This document shows, piece by piece, positions 27,438 to 32,573 of a DNA stretch of 64,000 bases (its first letter is position 1; each line of letters begins with the position of its first letter). The notes beneath the pieces are model-generated. The model saw nothing but the letters and a program-made list of their open reading frames with translations. It was not told where the DNA came from and did not search any database. The stretch spans positions 34,547-98,546 of the forward strand of contig CAVCJG010000002.1 in NCBI GenBank assembly GCA_963602685.1, in the 5' to 3' direction. The stretch is from Eggerthellaceae bacterium. Lineage in GTDB: Bacteria; Bacillota; Clostridia; Christensenellales; UBA1242. The position numbers were made by a program, and so were the translations under genes.

Positions 27438-27644
27438 ATGGAAGGAAAAGACGGAAAATATATTTGGACAGCAAAAGTTAGCGACAAAGGGCAGATTGTA
27501 ATTCCAAAGCAAGCGCGTGAGGTGTTTGACATAAAAGAAGGCGACACTCTCATTTTGTTTGGCGACAAAGAAAAGGGAATTGCGATTGCAAAATATGATG
27601 AATATCTTGCGTTTGCCGATGCAATATTTAAAGCAGGGAAGTAA
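27438..27644 (+). CDS. AbrB/MazE/SpoVT-family DNA-binding protein (68 aa)
   Basis: GQIVIPKQAREVFDIKEGDTLILF is a swapped-hairpin barrel (SpoVT-AbrB) motif. Confidence 0.8.
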   Translation: MEGKDGKYIWTAKVSDKGQIVIPKQAREVFDIKEGDTLILFGDKEKGIAIAKYDEYLAFADAIFKAGK

Positions 27645-27649
27645 AAAGT

Positions 27650-28363
27650 ATGATTGAAATTCAAAACTTAACAAAAAAGTTTTCGAAGTTGACAGCCGTT
27701 GATAATGTTAATCTAAAAATCGAAGACGGAAAATGCTTTGCACTTTTGGGACTTAACGGTGCTGGGAAAACGACTCTTATAAGCATGCTTTCGACATCGT
27801 TAAAACCTTCGCAAGGAACAGCAAAGTTTGACGATTTAGATTTGATCAAAGACACTGGCAGCGTTCGAAAAATCATAAACATATCGCCGCAAGAAGTGGC
27901 AGTGGCCAAAAATTTGACTGTAAAAGAAAATTTAGATTTGATTGCTTCGCTTTATTCGTTGCAAGATAAAGAGCGCAAAATCGCTCAAATCATAAAAGAA
28001 TTTGACCTTGAAGAAAAGCAAAATGTATTGTGTAAAAAGTTAAGCGGTGGGCAAAAGAGAAGACTGAGCATAGCGCTTGCAATCATATCGGAACCTAAGA
28101 TTTTGTTTTTAGACGAGCCAACACTTGGACTGGATGTAAAAGCGCGAAATGTTCTTTGGGAAATAATTGAAAAGTTAAAATCAAACATGACGATAGTGCT
28201 AACTACGCATTATCTTGACGAAGTCGAAAAACTCGCCGACACGATTGCAATTATGAGCAAAGGCAAAATCAAGACTTGCGGAAGTTTGGATGAAATTTTA
28301 AAAAGCACCGAAAGCAAAAATTTAGAAGAAGCATTTTTAAAATTGACGGAGGAGGAAGCATGA
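27650..28363 (+). CDS. ABC transporter ATP-binding protein
   Basis: Walker A GLNGAGKTT, signature LSGGQKRRL, Walker B ILFLDEPT and an H-loop TTH. Confidence 0.85.
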   Translation: MIEIQNLTKKFSKLTAVDNVNLKIEDGKCFALLGLNGAGKTTLISMLSTSLKPSQGTAKFDDLDLIKDTGSVRKIINISPQEVAVAKNLTVKENLDLIASLYSLQDKERKIAQIIKEFDLEEKQNVLCKKLSGGQKRRLSIALAIISEPKILFLDEPTLGLDVKARNVLWEIIEKLKSNMTIVLTTHYLDEVEKLADTIAIMSKGKIKTCGSLDEILKSTESKNLEEAFLKLTEEEA

Positions 28364-29091
28364 AAAAATTATTCGCTCTTTCGAAACGTAACATAAAAGA
28401 AATGCTCCGCGATCCACTCAGTCTTGTGTTTTGCATAGCCTTTCCAGTTTTAATGCTTGTGATGATGCAAATTATTTTCAAGAACGTTGAATACATGCCC
28501 GAAAATTTTGAAATCAAAAACTATGCGGCGGGAATCTGTGTTTTTGGCTATGCGTTTACGGGACTTTTTGTCGCGCTACAAATCACTGGCGACAAATCAA
28601 ATTCGTTTATCAAACGCATCAACATTTCGCCAATTTCACCAGTGACATATTTGCTGAGTTTTCTTGTTTCGGCACTGCCTGTCACATTTGTTCAGACGAT
28701 ATTGTTTTATGCGATCGCGCTGATCTTCGGCTTTCCATTTGACATCAATTTGCTTATCAGCATTTTCTATTTAATCCCATCGGCAGTGATGTATATTTCG
28801 TTTGGAATATTGGTCGGAAGCCTTTGCAAAAACGAAAAACAAACCGGTCCAATCACTTCAATTTTCATTTCGCTTGCAGGAATTTTCGGCGGCGTGTTTA
28901 TGCCTCTTTCATCATTCAAAGGCGGCTTTGCTGAGTTTGTGAATTTGCTGCCTTTTGCGCATTCTGTCTCAATCGCAAGTCAGTTGCCACAACTCGGAGC
29001 GGCGTGCATTTATCCGCATATTCTATTTTTGATTGGATATATTGCCGTTGCATGGATTATTATTTTTGTAACAAGAAAAATTAAAAATTAA
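28360..29091 (+). CDS. ABC-2-type transporter permease
   Basis: 243 aa with about 6 TM helices. ATGA overlap with the ATPase gene. Confidence 0.75.
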   Translation: MKKLFALSKRNIKEMLRDPLSLVFCIAFPVLMLVMMQIIFKNVEYMPENFEIKNYAAGICVFGYAFTGLFVALQITGDKSNSFIKRINISPISPVTYLLSFLVSALPVTFVQTILFYAIALIFGFPFDINLLISIFYLIPSAVMYISFGILVGSLCKNEKQTGPITSIFISLAGIFGGVFMPLSSFKGGFAEFVNLLPFAHSVSIASQLPQLGAACIYPHILFLIGYIAVAWIIIFVTRKIKN

Positions 29092-29113
29092 CACTAAAAC
29101 ATTGAAAAATAAT

Positions 29114-29142
29114 AAAAAAAGCAGCAAAAATGCTGCTTTTTT
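29114..29142. terminator. Bidirectional terminator between convergent genes
   Basis: A-run, GCAGCA-aaaa-TGCTGC, then T-run. Confidence 0.6.
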
Positions 29143-29158
29143 AATGTTTTAAGTTAAA

Positions 29159-30154
29159 TTATAGCAATTCAACGTCATGTGCTTTGCAATCTTTAACTGT
29201 TGCTTCGTCCCAATAAGACGCTTGAACTTCGCCTATGTGTGCTCTTCCTAAAAGTAACTGACAAAGTCTGCTTTGGCCGATTCCGCCACCAATAGTAAGT
29301 GGAAGTTTGTCTTCTAAAATCATCTTGTGATAAGCATATTTCATGCGCTCTTGCTTGCCAGATTTTTCGATTTGTTTAACCAGCGAATCTTTGTCAACTC
29401 GGATGCCCATGCTTGAAATTTCAAGCGCCATATCAAGCACTTCGTGATAAAACATAAGGTCGCCATCAAGTGCCCAATCGTCATAATCCGGCGCACGCAA
29501 ATCGTGTGGCTGACCATCTGAAAGAACGTCACCAATTTGCATGATAAACACTGTTTTGTATTTTTTGACGATTTCATATTCGCGTTGCTTTGGAGTAAGT
29601 GAAGGATAAAGATCCAGCAATTCTTGTGTGGTTATGAATTTCACATCTTCGCAAATGTCAACGCCGCTAAAGCCTTTTGCCTGCAAATATTTGCTTGTGT
29701 CGCAAACAGCCTTAACAATTTTTTTAACTGTTTTTTGCAAATAAGCAATCGTGCGGTCGCGCTTTAAAATAACTTTTTCCCAATCCCATTGGTCAACATA
29801 AATGGAGTGTGTTTCATCCATTTTGTCGTCACGGCGGATTGCGGTCATGTCGGTGTAAATGCCTTTGTGAGTGGCAATTTGATATTTCGCCAAAGCAAAG
29901 CGTTTCCACTTTGCAAGAGATTGAACAATTTCAAGTTCTTTCCCGTCTTTTAAAATGTCAAAGCAAACTTTTCTTTCAACTCCGCTTAAATCATCTTGGA
30001 GTCCCGACTCTTGTGTCACAAGAAGTGGGGCAGAGACGCGAGTTAAATCAAGGCGTTTTGCAAGTTCCTTTTCAAATTTGTCTTTAATAAGTTTTATATA
30101 TTTTTGTTTTTCCATTACGCTAAGTTTTGCGTATTTATCTTTTATAATTTTCAT
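29159..30154 (-). CDS. asnA: Aspartate--ammonia ligase (asparagine synthetase A)
   Basis: 331 aa. AsnA-type class-II-synthetase-like sequence (GGGIGQSRLCQLLL near the C-terminus). SD AAGGAG. Confidence 0.9.
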   Translation of the reverse strand: MKIIKDKYAKLSVMEKQKYIKLIKDKFEKELAKRLDLTRVSAPLLVTQESGLQDDLSGVERKVCFDILKDGKELEIVQSLAKWKRFALAKYQIATHKGIYTDMTAIRRDDKMDETHSIYVDQWDWEKVILKRDRTIAYLQKTVKKIVKAVCDTSKYLQAKGFSGVDICEDVKFITTQELLDLYPSLTPKQREYEIVKKYKTVFIMQIGDVLSDGQPHDLRAPDYDDWALDGDLMFYHEVLDMALEISSMGIRVDKDSLVKQIEKSGKQERMKYAYHKMILEDKLPLTIGGGIGQSRLCQLLLGRAHIGEVQASYWDEATVKDCKAHDVELL

Positions 30155-30241
30155 TGTTTTTTCTCCTTAAATTTTTTTGATTTTTATTTTTTTTGTGTGT
30201 GAAAGCCTGTGCATTTAAGGATAAAAAACAAAGCATGATTT

Positions 30242-30316
30242 TTAACTTTTGCGTTTAATCCTTAAATGTAAAAAATTATTATTGTCTTCGCCCGCTACGG
30301 CATTTTTCTTTTTCAT
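30242..30316 (-). CDS. Candidate leader peptide 2 (24 aa, MKKKNAVAGEDNNNFLHLRIKRKS)
   Basis: SD AAAAGGAG lies 8 nt before the ATG. Three consecutive AAT Asn codons are present. Codons 17-20 are part of an 11-nt segment complementary to downstream sequence. Confidence 0.5.
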   Translation of the reverse strand: MKKKNAVAGEDNNNFLHLRIKRKS

Positions 30317-30350
30317 AGTAAAATTCTCCTTTTAATTTGGTATATAAAAA

Positions 30351-30379
30351 AGCACCTTCCTGAGTTTCAAGAAGGTGCT
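30351..30379 (-). terminator. Terminator/attenuator hairpin between the two leader ORFs
   Basis: On the minus strand, AGCACCTTC-ttgaaactcag-GAAGGTGCT is followed by TTTTTTAT. Confidence 0.6.
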
Positions 30380-30409
30380 GATTTATTGATTTGGTTTAAT
30401 TAAATAGCA

Positions 30410-30478
30410 TCAAAAAGAAACCCACTGATTTCGTGTGTTTGAGTTGTTTGAATTGTTGCTATTTAAAATTCTAAACAT
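30410..30478 (-). CDS. Candidate leader peptide 1 (22 aa, MFRILNSNNSNNSNTRNQWVSF)
   Basis: SD AAAGGAGAG lies 6 nt before the ATG. 7 of 22 codons are Asn. It sits directly downstream of a consensus-like promoter. Confidence 0.5.
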   Translation of the reverse strand: MFRILNSNNSNNSNTRNQWVSF

Positions 30479-30491
30479 TTTTGTCTCTCCT

Positions 30492-30531
30492 TTGACATTT
30501 TTATAATATGCCATAAAATTGTGTTTGTCAA
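30492..30531. promoter_or_regulatory. Interdigitated divergent promoters bounded by inverted TTGACA hexamers
   Basis: Minus strand: TTGACA (30531-30526)-N17-TATTAT (30508-30503). Plus strand: TTGACA (30492-30497)-N16-TAAAAT (30514-30519). Confidence 0.5.
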
Positions 30532-30732
30532 CTCTTTTTTTTAAAAATTTATGCGCAAAAAAACGCAATCGCCATTTTCTTTTAAAAAATAAGGGCACAA
30601 AACAATGCAACCGATTGCATTTTGCGGCCAACTTGTGCTATTATTTTTATGAGCAAAGAATATGCATTTAATTGCAGCTATTCACATTTCTTAACAATCA
30701 ACAAAAAACTTAAGCTATAAAAGGAGAACCAC

Positions 30733-31524
30733 ATGAATCTTATCTTAACAAGCTGCTTAAATTTTTATCATAAAGATAATGATGGCAAAAAAATAGCACA
30801 AAATTTTGGTAATGAAAATGGTATAATGAATCTCATTAAAAAGTTAACACCAAAACATGACAATTTTGTTTTTGTCGCAAGTTCTGAATTCGGTTACAAT
30901 GCGACAGATATTTATGCCAGTCTAACATTTGATTCTTTTAGGATTTCATTTCCTTTTAAAAATTACGTTGTTTTAGACGGAAGAACAAAAGATAAAACAA
31001 AAGAAATTATTGAAAATGCTGATTTAATCTTTTTATGTGGGGGACACGTTCCAACACAGAATAAATTTTTTCAAAACATCAATTTGAAAGAAATAATAAA
31101 AAACACAAAAGCATTGATTATTGGTCAAAGTGCAGGTTCGATGAACTCGGCCGATGTTGTGTATGCGCAGCCAGAGATTGAAGGAGAATCAGTCGATCCA
31201 ACTTATAAAAGATATCTTAAAGGATTAGGATTGACTAAAATAAGCATTCTTCCTCATTTCGAGCAATGCATAGATGATGTCGTTGACGGCAAAAACATAT
31301 TTAAAGAGATTTCTATACCAGACAGTAAAATAAGACCATTTATAGCCTATTCTGATGGCGCCTATATTTATGATGATGGAGTGCAGCAACTTATGTATGG
31401 CAAGGCATATTTGTTTGAAAATGGAAGTTATCATCTAATATCACAAGAAAATGCAGTAACAGACATTACACAACTTGTTAAAAACAAATTTTGCAAGAAC
31501 AATTGCGATTTAATTAAAGAGTAA
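30733..31524 (+). CDS. Peptidase E-like (S51 / type 1 glutamine amidotransferase-like) protein
   Basis: 263 aa. LIFLCGGHVPTQ...ALIIGQSAGSMN resembles the dipeptidase E nucleophile region. Confidence 0.6.
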   Translation: MNLILTSCLNFYHKDNDGKKIAQNFGNENGIMNLIKKLTPKHDNFVFVASSEFGYNATDIYASLTFDSFRISFPFKNYVVLDGRTKDKTKEIIENADLIFLCGGHVPTQNKFFQNINLKEIIKNTKALIIGQSAGSMNSADVVYAQPEIEGESVDPTYKRYLKGLGLTKISILPHFEQCIDDVVDGKNIFKEISIPDSKIRPFIAYSDGAYIYDDGVQQLMYGKAYLFENGSYHLISQENAVTDITQLVKNKFCKNNCDLIKE

Positions 31525-31546
31525 AACTCAAAGTTTTACTCTTTAT
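31518..31546 (+). terminator. Intrinsic terminator
   Basis: 11-bp stem AGAGTAAAACT-caa-AGTTTTACTCT spanning the stop codon, followed by TTAT. Confidence 0.6.
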
Positions 31547-31702
31547 GTAGCCGTAGCTTAGTAAGATAGAAATAATATGTAATAAAAATGCAGTTCTTTA
31601 TTTACTTGTTTTTTCGTAAGTCTTGATTAAATTTTTGAAAGTATCAAAAATTTATCAATAGGTTTGTTTTAAATCTAGTTTTAAATTTTAAAAATTTTAT
31701 AT

Positions 31703-31777
31703 GTTCTCGTAGTTCAACGGATAGAACAAGAGCCTCCTAAGCTCTAGATGTGGTTTCGATTACCGCCGGGAACACCA
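31703..31777 (+). tRNA. tRNA-Arg (anticodon CCU)
   Basis: Cloverleaf with acceptor GTTCTCG/CGGGAAC, anticodon arm AGAGC-CTCCTAA-GCTCT, T-arm GTGGT-TTCGATT-ACCGC, and encoded CCA. Confidence 0.85.
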
Positions 31778-31799
31778 AAACTAAAACAAAGGATAATGT

Positions 31800-32573
31800 A
31801 TGGATAAGTATTTAATTTTATTTGATGTTGATGGAACGCTGACTCACCGCGGGGATCATGACGTGGCAAAAACAATTTTAGACAGCATTAAAATGGCAAA
31901 ACAAAAAGGCCATATTGTTGCTATTTCGACGGGCAGGTCACTTAAAAATACGCTCGCGTTGCAAGGCAGTGAAGTGTTTGACTATATTGTTTGCCTTATG
32001 GGAACTGAAGTTTATGATGTCAAACAGAAAAGGGTTGTTTATCAATATCCAGAGCACATGAACAACGAATACATTAAGCCGCTTATTGAATATTTGATTT
32101 CAACTGGCAAAGAGTGGACGTACAAAGATTGCTATGGCGACAAAACCACTTATGACATCAGCAAATATGGCGGAAAATTTAACGCTGTGCAAGTTGACAG
32201 GGCTGAAATGGAAAACGACCTTAAAAACAACAACATTATGCAACTTCTTGCAGTTGAAGGGGCGATAACGCAAGACGTGATTGATAGATTTAAAGAACTT
32301 GACTTTATCAAGATGCCACCGGACTATTACGACATTTTAAAGAAAGGTCAAAACAAAGGCATTGCGATTGAATATTTCAAAAAATGCTATCCTGGATATA
32401 AAACCGTTGCAGTTGGCGACTCATTCAATGACATCGGAATGTTTGAAACCTGCGACATTTCGATAGCGATGGGAAACTCTGCTGACGCAATTAAAAATAT
32501 GACAACTTATGTAACCAAACCTTTAGACGATGACGGCGTGCCATACGCACTCAAGCATATTTTAAAAATTTAA
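31800..32573 (+). CDS. Cof-type HAD-IIB family hydrolase
   Basis: LILFDVDGTL motif I, STGR motif II, and GDSFNDIGMF motif IV. Confidence 0.8.
   Translation: MDKYLILFDVDGTLTHRGDHDVAKTILDSIKMAKQKGHIVAISTGRSLKNTLALQGSEVFDYIVCLMGTEVYDVKQKRVVYQYPEHMNNEYIKPLIEYLISTGKEWTYKDCYGDKTTYDISKYGGKFNAVQVDRAEMENDLKNNNIMQLLAVEGAITQDVIDRFKELDFIKMPPDYYDILKKGQNKGIAIEYFKKCYPGYKTVAVGDSFNDIGMFETCDISIAMGNSADAIKNMTTYVTKPLDDDGVPYALKHILKI

Follow-up and report, generated by a model that had tools for sequence, protein, structure and literature searches.

A leader with two asparagine-codon-rich reading frames that probably controls asnA in an uncultured clade of gut Bacillota

We analysed the leader of asnA, the gene for an aspartate–ammonia ligase, in a 64,000-nucleotide (nt) stretch of DNA assigned to an Eggerthellaceae bacterium (assembly GCA_963602685.1, contig CAVCJG010000002.1, positions 34,547 to 98,546 of the forward strand), which we refer to as the window and whose own numbering we use for its features. 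The leader carries a pair of small open reading frames (ORFs), ORF1 and ORF2, both with runs of asparagine (Asn) codons, and, as judged from its sequence, it probably serves the ribosome-mediated, Asn-responsive control of asnA. Its upstream part (tier 1) is, by all its sequence properties, very likely a true trp/his-type transcription attenuator; its downstream part (tier 2) is, in our model, reasonably likely to be an Asn-sensing translational switch, in which ribosome stalling keeps the asnA Shine-Dalgarno (SD) sequence open. Two-tier leader-peptide attenuation had been put forward in an earlier reading of the same DNA (hereafter the original prediction), and this interpretation is now supported by conservation in relatives, by covariation and by the recovery of an antiterminator; the direction in which tier 2 responds is one that we infer.

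The identity of asnA is well supported, its product scoring 312 bits against TIGR00669 (cut-off 293) and also containing PF03590, and in the window the gene is monocistronic. The leader before it is about 330 bases long, and a 361-nt leader fold has a z-score of −5.2 relative to shuffled sequences. Transcription would start from the TTGACA-N17-TATTAT promoter, which is present on the minus strand as predicted and matches 11 of 12 consensus positions. Most relatives have TTGACA equally far upstream of ORF1, L095 and L104 being off by one base. The coordinates of all features are collected in Table 1.

For comparison we used 14 related lineages with AsnA proteins 77–98% identical, which together with the window gave 15 leaders (L numbers denote individual loci). 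Eleven of about 50 AsnA clusters are represented, sampled by exact look-up of 12 AsnA proteins, and the set is completed by one locus from GTDB and two from a pattern scan; the diversity of ORF1 described here is that of the fetched loci. The scan, run on metagenomes with a pattern derived from a GC-rich island in ORF2, returned five loci, three of them near-identical to the window. L098 was left out: at its positions 1–170, GC-rich unrelated DNA is joined to the leader inside ORF2, and the contig is probably an assembly chimera. The order promoter, ORF1, intrinsic terminator (T1), ORF2, asnA is found in 14/14 of the sampled lineages, and a triplet of SD, anti-SD and anti-anti-SD segments before asnA in 12/14, as well as in L091, a fragment that covers tier 2 only. 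Conservation of the Asn-rich ORFs and of the complementary segments in relatives had been set beforehand as a test of the original prediction, which comes through it with these counts. In the protein database, AsnA forms a dense clade at 76–80% identity, with a few further members at 96–98%. Among the GTDB representatives, which do not include the window's genome, an Asn-rich upstream ORF accompanies only the closest (L002, 78% AsnA identity) of 80 asnA loci. A covariance model of tier 1 hits these leaders only, with no match in the other 79 loci or in the remainder of the window, and at L001, whose AsnA is 74% identical, neither the leader nor any Rfam element is present. On these loci, the element stops at roughly the 76% boundary of the AsnA clade.

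ORF1 is as originally described: it has 22 codons, a strong SD and seven Asn codons, a frequency with P = 8e-5 given that Asn accounts for 5.1% of residues in the 53 long ORFs of the window. No other stretch of the 64 kb, in any of the six frames, contains at least six Asn codons within ten. The relatives' versions have 6–12 Asn codons (consensus MFRxINNNNNNNxNAxNMGFIFVVEN..; typical sequences MFRLINNNNNNNLNAFNMGFIFVVENI), of which five to seven are consecutive, and the amino acid is the product of the downstream enzyme. A GGAG-type SD precedes ORF1 in 14/15 leaders; in L081 it is replaced by the weaker AAAGGGG, the single exception to the rule that both ORFs keep their ATG, frame and strong SD in all lineages. 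All 15 leaders have the first hallmark of a trpL/hisL-type attenuator, a short ORF with SD and start codon in the leader of a biosynthetic gene, together with the second, clustered codons for the pathway's own amino acid, here Asn ahead of asnA.

T1 supplies the third hallmark, an intrinsic terminator placed after the leader ORF and ahead of the structural gene. A 9-base-pair (bp) hairpin followed by TTTTTT had been predicted at 30379–30351; the location stands, but the stem has 13 bp (one of them G-U) around a 3-nt loop, and just five T follow it, six only if the final T of the stem is counted. Across the leaders, 96% of the T1 cells are paired, with compensatory changes at four pairs. When the RNA from ORF1 through T1 is folded, the minimum free energy (MFE) structure consists, in all 15 leaders, of a hairpin between segments 1 and 2 – the protector – and a separate T1 (3:4), and RNAalifold gives the same termination fold independently. 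In this fold 88.7% of cells are paired, as compared to 45–52% for slid partners, and nine pairs are altered on both sides. The protector joins the 5′ half of ORF1, including its Asn codons, to the 3′ half of the same ORF, so that in all leaders the regulatory codons lie in the 5′ arm of a 1:2 hairpin, as in trpL and hisL. In the majority clade, AAC AAC AAU AAU (Asn) stands opposite AUU UUU GUU GUU, which explains the conserved IFVV tail of ORF1. The stop region, UCUAAACAU, is the partner of the start-codon region, AUGUUUAGA. The window writes the 1:2 helix in different letters, UUAAAUAGCA (30466–30457) with UGCUAUUUAA (30409–30400) as compared to AACAACAAUAAU:AUUUUUGUUGUU.

The original prediction had found no convincing antiterminator for this hairpin, and had offered as its only candidate an 8-bp pairing of ORF1 codons with the hairpin loop (TGGGTTTC/GAAACTCA). 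That pairing is borne out but is only the outer helix of a two-helix 2:3 antiterminator, which is now predicted in addition to the 1:2 protector. For this analysis we masked the RNA that a ribosome would cover when stalled at the Asn run and left the 3′ arm of T1 off the transcript. Folded in this way, every leader forms the outer helix A1:B2 and all but L102 (outer helix alone) also form A2:B1; a two-helix antiterminator is given by RNAalifold as well. A1, UGGGUUUC(A), is paired with the T1 loop region UGAAAYYCA, and A2 (UGUUGA; in the window UGCUAUUUA) with the base of the T1 5′ arm; since it uses the T1 5′ arm and loop, the antiterminator is exclusive with the terminator. Over the 15 leaders 92.2% of its cells are paired, versus 34–51% for slid partners. 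L087 shows a compensatory swap from U-A to C-G (GGGUUCCA/UGGAAUCC), and the variants ACUCA and AUCCA are each able to pair with UGGGU. The predicted energies are −12 to −17 kcal/mol for the antiterminator and −15 to −19 kcal/mol for T1.

The geometry of tier 1 fits the model, on the assumption that a translating ribosome shields about 10 nt beyond its A site. With the A site on Asn codons 6–14, A1 is left free; a ribosome at the ORF1 stop codon, which in the window lies 4 nt after A1, covers it. In one relative, L104 (1201–1338), ORF1 ends early as MIRLFNNDNNNDLNAY at a premature TGA just before A1, and the downstream RNA GGGUUUCAUUUUUGUUGUUGAAAA is unaltered. The early stop would be placed where a terminating ribosome covers A1, and, because this leader keeps segment 2, it is the RNA of ORF1 that is conserved and not the peptide tail. 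The distance from the T-tract of T1 to the ORF2 SD is 12 nt, and the minus strand between the leader promoter and asnA has no further promoter-like site. A separate asnA promoter after T1 was rejected on these two grounds, and for the same reasons asnA needs read-through of T1.

The events in tier 1 would then be as follows. After transcription from the TTGACA/TATTAT promoter, ORF1 would be translated. With plentiful Asn-tRNA(Asn), the ribosome would reach the ORF1 stop and cover segment 2; T1 would form, and RNA polymerase would terminate about 130 nt into the transcript. Untranslated ORF1 would fold as 1:2, allowing T1 to form and leading to the same termination. If Asn-tRNA is scarce, a ribosome stalled at Asn codons 6–14 within segment 1 would leave segment 2 free, and A1 and A2 could pair with the T1 loop and 5′ arm (2:3) before the 3′ arm has been made, resulting in read-through. 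Most relatives may go further. A second intrinsic terminator, T2, lies between T1 and ORF2 in 10/15 lineages (L002, L081, L087, L095, L097, L101, L102, L103, L105 and L106); it is absent from the window. The 3′ arm of T1 is complementary to the 5′ arm of T2 in 10/10 of them (−10 to −13 kcal/mol; 0–1.3% of shuffles are as good), and disruption of T1 would for this reason also disarm T2. In these leaders a six-segment, his-like relay would put both terminators, one after the other on the transcript, out of action together.

Tier 2 starts with ORF2, whose 24 codons, strong SD and three consecutive AAT codons (30283–30275) are present, as claimed, at 30316–30242. In relatives, ORF2 begins with M[KR]KxNAVAG[ED] and continues into a D/N tract with at most six consecutive Asn (eight Asn in all in L105; typical sequences MKKTNAVAGEDDNNNNNNLRRRFL). 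The length of this tract changes in whole codons only (steps of 3 nt), and in nearly all triplet-bearing leaders the Asn run reaches as far as the 5′ edge of the anti-anti-SD segment. The three motif copies of the original prediction are likewise in place: CATTTAAGGAT in ORF2 codons 17–20 (30268–30258), its perfect complement ATCCTTAAATG at 30222–30212, and the asnA SD ATTTAAGGAG at 30172–30163. The middle copy, the anti-SD, was said to be able to pair with either flank, and the energies agree: in the window the duplex with the anti-anti-SD has −18.5 kcal/mol versus −17.5 kcal/mol for that with the SD, the MFE structure of the whole leader containing the latter (19 bp). In most of the 14 leaders with the triplet the two duplexes are close in energy, and the MFE structure flips between them across lineages. 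Both cores are about 100% paired (anti-SD:SD in 12 lineages). Anti-anti-SD and anti-SD covary without the SD: in three lineages (the window, L081 and L087) the pair reads GGAU:AUCC (G-C to U-A) beside an unchanged GGAG in the SD, and in L095 a 1-nt insertion in one arm is matched by one in the other. The alignment and folding proposed with the original prediction were to look for covarying stems and alternative structures; covarying stems and mutually exclusive pairings were found in both tiers.

As in translational attenuation, the SD and start of the regulated gene are predicted to be sequestered by pairing, and an alternative pairing with leader-ORF sequence (the anti-anti-SD inside ORF2) would free them. 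The implied stall site is the Asn-codon run upstream of the anti-anti-SD; a drug- and nascent-peptide-dependent stall on segment 1, as in erm and cat, is not seen, and there is no resemblance to the leader peptides of Erm or Cat. Tier 2 would work like translational attenuation but outside the erm/cat families. We take the direction in which a stall opens the SD as the sensible one, because masking the anti-anti-SD can only free the anti-SD. On read-through transcripts, unhindered ribosomes would run through ORF2 over the anti-anti-SD, the anti-SD would pair with the SD segment, and little AsnA would be made; ribosomes held at the ORF2 Asn run would allow the anti-anti-SD to keep the anti-SD paired, with the asnA SD left open. 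We infer, for both tiers, that the stalls occur on hungry Asn codons, that folding kinetics set the outcome and that asnA would respond physiologically.

Two further features of the tier-2 region can be described. A GC island, GCCGUAGCGGGC, is identical, synonymous sites included, in 12/15 leaders and in the L091 fragment, whereas the remaining leader is AT-rich and variable; L097 and L102 share one synonymous A-to-U change, and the L084 version, GCUUUGGCAAGC, folds into a small hairpin all the same. One possibility is that the island acts close to the start as a hairpin favouring initiation; another is that the NAVAG peptide matters. Separately, a helix X:X′ (GUAAAUUUU:AAAAUUUAC, the first containing the ORF2 stop) lies between the anti-anti-SD and the asnA SD in L081, L084, L091, L094, L097, L102, L103, L105 and L106, with compensatory changes in L091 and L097. 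It crosses both tier-2 pairings and could be either a pseudoknot or a third alternative; as part of the mechanism in the window it was rejected, the helix not being present there.

Table 1. Features of the asnA leader and adjoining DNA in the window (cores and pairing strands are listed with the segment that contains them)
Feature	Coordinates	Strand	Details
Promoter, sigma-70-type	30503..30531	-	TTGACA 30531-30526, 17-nt spacer, TATTAT 30508-30503
ORF1 SD AAAGGAGAGAC	30483..30493	-	AAGGAG 8 nt before ATG
ORF1, 22 codons + stop, encodes MFRILNSNNSNNSNTRNQWVSF	30410..30478	-	Asn codons 6, 8, 9, 11, 12, 14, 17
ORF1 regulatory Asn-codon cluster, codons 6-14	30437..30463	-	inside protector 5′ arm
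Segment 1, protector 5′ arm	30433..30476	-	core UUAAAUAGCA 30466-30457; from MFE folds, RNAalifold and pair counts
Segment 2, protector 3′ arm and antiterminator 5′ strand	30394..30425	-	A1 UGGGUUUC 30424-30417; A2 UGCUAUUUA 30409-30401
Segment 3, antiterminator partner	30361..30385	-	B1 UAAAUCAGCA 30385-30376 (pairs with A2); B2 GAAACUCA 30368-30361 (pairs with A1); overlaps T1 5′ arm and loop
T1 intrinsic terminator (3:4)	30346..30379	-	13-bp stem 30379-30351, loop AAC, then TTTTT
ORF2 SD region AAAAGGAGAATTTTACT	30317..30333	-	AAGGAG; kept in relatives
ORF2, 24 codons + stop, encodes MKKKNAVAGEDNNNFLHLRIKRKS	30242..30316	-	Asn codons 5, 12, 13, 14
GC island GCCGUAGCGGGC, ORF2 codons 6-9	30290..30301	-	small hairpin, +16 to +27 from ORF2 AUG
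Anti-anti-SD, ORF2 codons 16-24	30244..30269	-	core CAUUUAAGGAU 30268-30258
Anti-SD	30211..30235	-	core AUCCUUAAAUG 30222-30212; 5′ extension GCUUUGUUUUUU
SD segment, asnA SD through AUG	30152..30173	-	AAUUUAAGGAGAAAAAACAAUG
asnA, aspartate–ammonia ligase, 331 aa	29159..30154	-	TIGR00669 and PF03590
Terminator, bidirectional hairpin downstream of asnA	29115..29142	-	asnA is monocistronic

Several observations weigh against Asn-responsive control in two tiers. In the window, T1 is more stable than the antiterminator (−19.3 versus −12.6 kcal/mol), and antitermination must therefore be kinetic; a stall at Asn17 of ORF1 would mask A1 and not free it. The leaders are closely related, with an effective sequence number of 1.58 in the covariance model, and independent compensatory events are consequently few. 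In tier 2, Asn makes up 4/24 codons of the window's ORF2 (P = 0.03), which is weak taken alone and draws its support from the relatives. A ribosome on the last ORF2 Asn codons would cover the anti-anti-SD, with the opposite effect. Termination at the ORF2 stop would bring a ribosome over the 5′ end of the anti-SD, the gap being −2 to 9 nt for most leaders. Finally, L002 and L101 have neither anti-anti-SD nor anti-SD. The ORF2 of these two (L002 2886–2976, L101 1365–1484) is longer, with 29 and 39 codons respectively, and stops about 10–20 nt before the asnA start, which suggests occlusion or coupling in place of the three-segment switch.

The low Asn count of the window's ORF2, the two leaders in which ORF2 ends just before the asnA SD in a manner resembling coupling or occlusion, and the ambiguous sign that results from ribosome footprints overlapping the tier-2 segments would all suit an explanation in which Asn is sensed by tier 1 only, ORF2 and the triplet having a constitutive role in mRNA stabilisation, in fixed damping of asnA translation or in translational coupling, with ORF2 ribosomes simply opening the structure around the SD of asnA. 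We consider this unlikely: the D/N tract of the relatives, with its consecutive Asn codons, reaches the 5′ edge of the anti-anti-SD in nearly all triplet-bearing leaders, the latter resembles an SD but its changes track the anti-SD and not the SD, and the two pairings are near-isoenergetic, as in a switch.

Far less probable is an RNA that binds a ligand, a tRNA or a protein (a riboswitch, a T-box-like element or the target of an RNA-binding protein), with the short ORFs incidental. The preservation of the GC island at synonymous sites does indicate an RNA-level constraint beyond the ribosome model, and Asn-specific T-boxes are the known Firmicutes solution (PMC2494555). However, in positions 29000–31800 of the window no Rfam 15 family, T-box (RF00230) included, is matched even at E ≤ 10, and a T-box or riboswitch was rejected for this reason; the best scores in the leader region, 24.9 bits for PyrG_leader (threshold 65) and 17.7 bits for Trp_leader (threshold 41), are both below threshold. 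Among 20 more distant asnA loci, one has a T-box nearby. Incidental ORFs would also fit poorly with the SD, ATG and frame kept by both in all lineages or with 5–7 consecutive ORF1 codons for the product of the downstream enzyme, and the conserved pairings already make up a full 1:2 / 2:3 / 3:4 set.

Least probable of all, in our estimate, is that ORF1 and T1 form an independent small gene or small RNA whose Asn richness reflects a functional peptide, with asnA expressed separately. Gene callers did annotate the ORF1 equivalents of some contigs as proteins of 29–43 aa, and terminated leader RNAs and peptides act in trans elsewhere (rnTrpL/peTrpL, PMC7298713), but the 12-nt spacing and the lack of a promoter-like site make asnA dependent on read-through, in the DNA searched the unit occurs only upstream of asnA, L104 dispenses with the C-terminal peptide and keeps the RNA, and the 3′ half of ORF1 can pair with the 5′ half of that ORF as well as with T1. 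A chance origin was rejected on the Asn statistics and the conservation.

The closest known relatives of tier 1 by design are the his operon leader hisL of E. coli/Salmonella and trpL, which like leuL, thrL and pheL are ribosome-mediated transcription attenuators, represented in Rfam by His_leader, Trp_leader and others. They share with the asnA leader a short ORF with about seven codons for the end product, an intrinsic terminator and exclusive 1:2/2:3/3:4 pairings, and the his attenuator (A:B, C:D, E:F versus B:C, D:E) is mirrored by the ten T2-bearing relatives (1:2, 3:4, 5:6 versus 2:3, 4:5). Unlike them, the asnA leader is Asn-specific, belongs to uncultured low-GC Bacillota, has a middle hairpin that is itself a terminator, possesses a second tier and has no sequence similarity to the known leaders. 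To our knowledge, the amino-acid range of leader-peptide attenuation is narrow (Trp, His, Leu, Thr, Ile/Val and Phe, with Cys and Pro as special cases). Such attenuation has been regarded as rare in Firmicutes, where T-boxes dominate. Firmicutes leader-peptide attenuators have been described for S. aureus ilv-leu (Leu-rich, PMC5794164), Bacillus hisS/hisZ (His, PMC2965389) and L. monocytogenes ilv (Ile, PMC5864092); they are classical, like the asnA leader, but respond to other amino acids through one tier only, and their sequences are unrelated to it. An Asn T-box, of which L. bulgaricus asnS-asnA is reportedly a case, has in common with the asnA leader the genes, the signal (tRNA-Asn charging) and the choice between terminator and antiterminator, but binds uncharged tRNA and needs no translation, and the asnA leader has no detectable T-box. 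Asn-specific T-box leaders are found upstream of asnA/asnS in Firmicutes (PMC2494555).

The nearest counterparts of tier 2 are ermC and cat, which similarly have an upstream leader ORF, a sequestered SD and an alternative pairing chosen by ribosome position. They differ in using four segments, with the stalled ribosome masking segment 1; tier 2 has three, the first being an SD look-alike, and a productive stall must occur upstream of it. Stalling of the erm/cat type is brought about by the antibiotic together with the nascent peptide and has no specificity for an amino acid (PMC2965389). For two short ORFs in one leader, the nearest known case is mgtCBR: in Salmonella mgtCBR/mgtA, translation of the two ORFs picks between stem-loops (PMC3641672). 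There the ORFs respond to different signals (related to proline, ATP or Mg2+) and both act on transcription elongation, whereas the two ORFs of the asnA leader appear to share one amino acid as their signal, ORF1 working at termination and ORF2 at translation initiation.

No Asn leader-peptide attenuator was found in Rfam 15 or in the literature searched, in which subscription journals are thinly covered, and as far as this search goes the element is undescribed for asparagine. We lean, if only slightly, towards regarding it as the first Asn-specific leader-peptide attenuator, and as one that reads the same signal twice in series, at termination and then at access to the asnA SD by means of a decoy SD; such a transcription-plus-translation AND gate would give a steep response, to which the GC hairpin at +16 to +27 may add a further input.

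The surroundings of the gene offer some additional observations. In many relatives (L081, L084, L097, L102, L103 and L105), asnA is followed by a gene for a conserved protein of 226–267 aa that has no Pfam or NCBIfam match. In L097 (2508–3993) asnA and the gene for this protein, here 232 aa, are followed by asnS (NCBIfam-confirmed), and L105 (2520–3996) has the same layout; because the L097 operon continues into asnS, Asn would be charged directly onto tRNA, and the linkage fits sensing via direct tRNA(Asn) charging. Directly upstream of the −35 hexamer of the window's asnA promoter lies a 37-nt direct repeat (30535–30571 and 30577–30613; 73% identical, 42-nt spacing), a region also kept in L099 and L090, the 96–98% relatives; it could be a candidate transcription-factor site for asnA or for the divergent gene. 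The latter, at 30733–31524 (+), encodes a Peptidase_S51 protein, a family that includes dipeptidase E, which releases Asp from Asp-X dipeptides; this would be a functional tie to the supply of the AsnA substrate. Two neighbours are unrelated to the leader: at 27438–29091 (+), genes for a 68-aa MazE/AbrB-like protein and then for an ABC ATPase with an ABC-2 permease, and, at 31703–31777 (+), a tRNA-Arg(CCU).

If the Asn version is true, it would widen the known amino-acid range of leader-peptide attenuation, and the design would have been invented again, independently, in an uncultured clade of gut Bacillota. It also reveals a rule of design: reading Asn codons (AAY) as their reverse complement gives Val and Ile codons (GUU, AUU), with neighbouring AAA opposite Phe UUU, and it is for this reason that the leader ORF can fold on itself. 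The short ORFs that are called hypothetical proteins in the metagenome-assembled genomes of relatives would be leader peptides. Two upstream ORFs that read one metabolite at two levels of expression could inform work on ultrasensitive control and would make a compact part for synthetic biology. For the bacteria themselves, Asn shortage most likely switches asnA on, first at transcription and then at translation.

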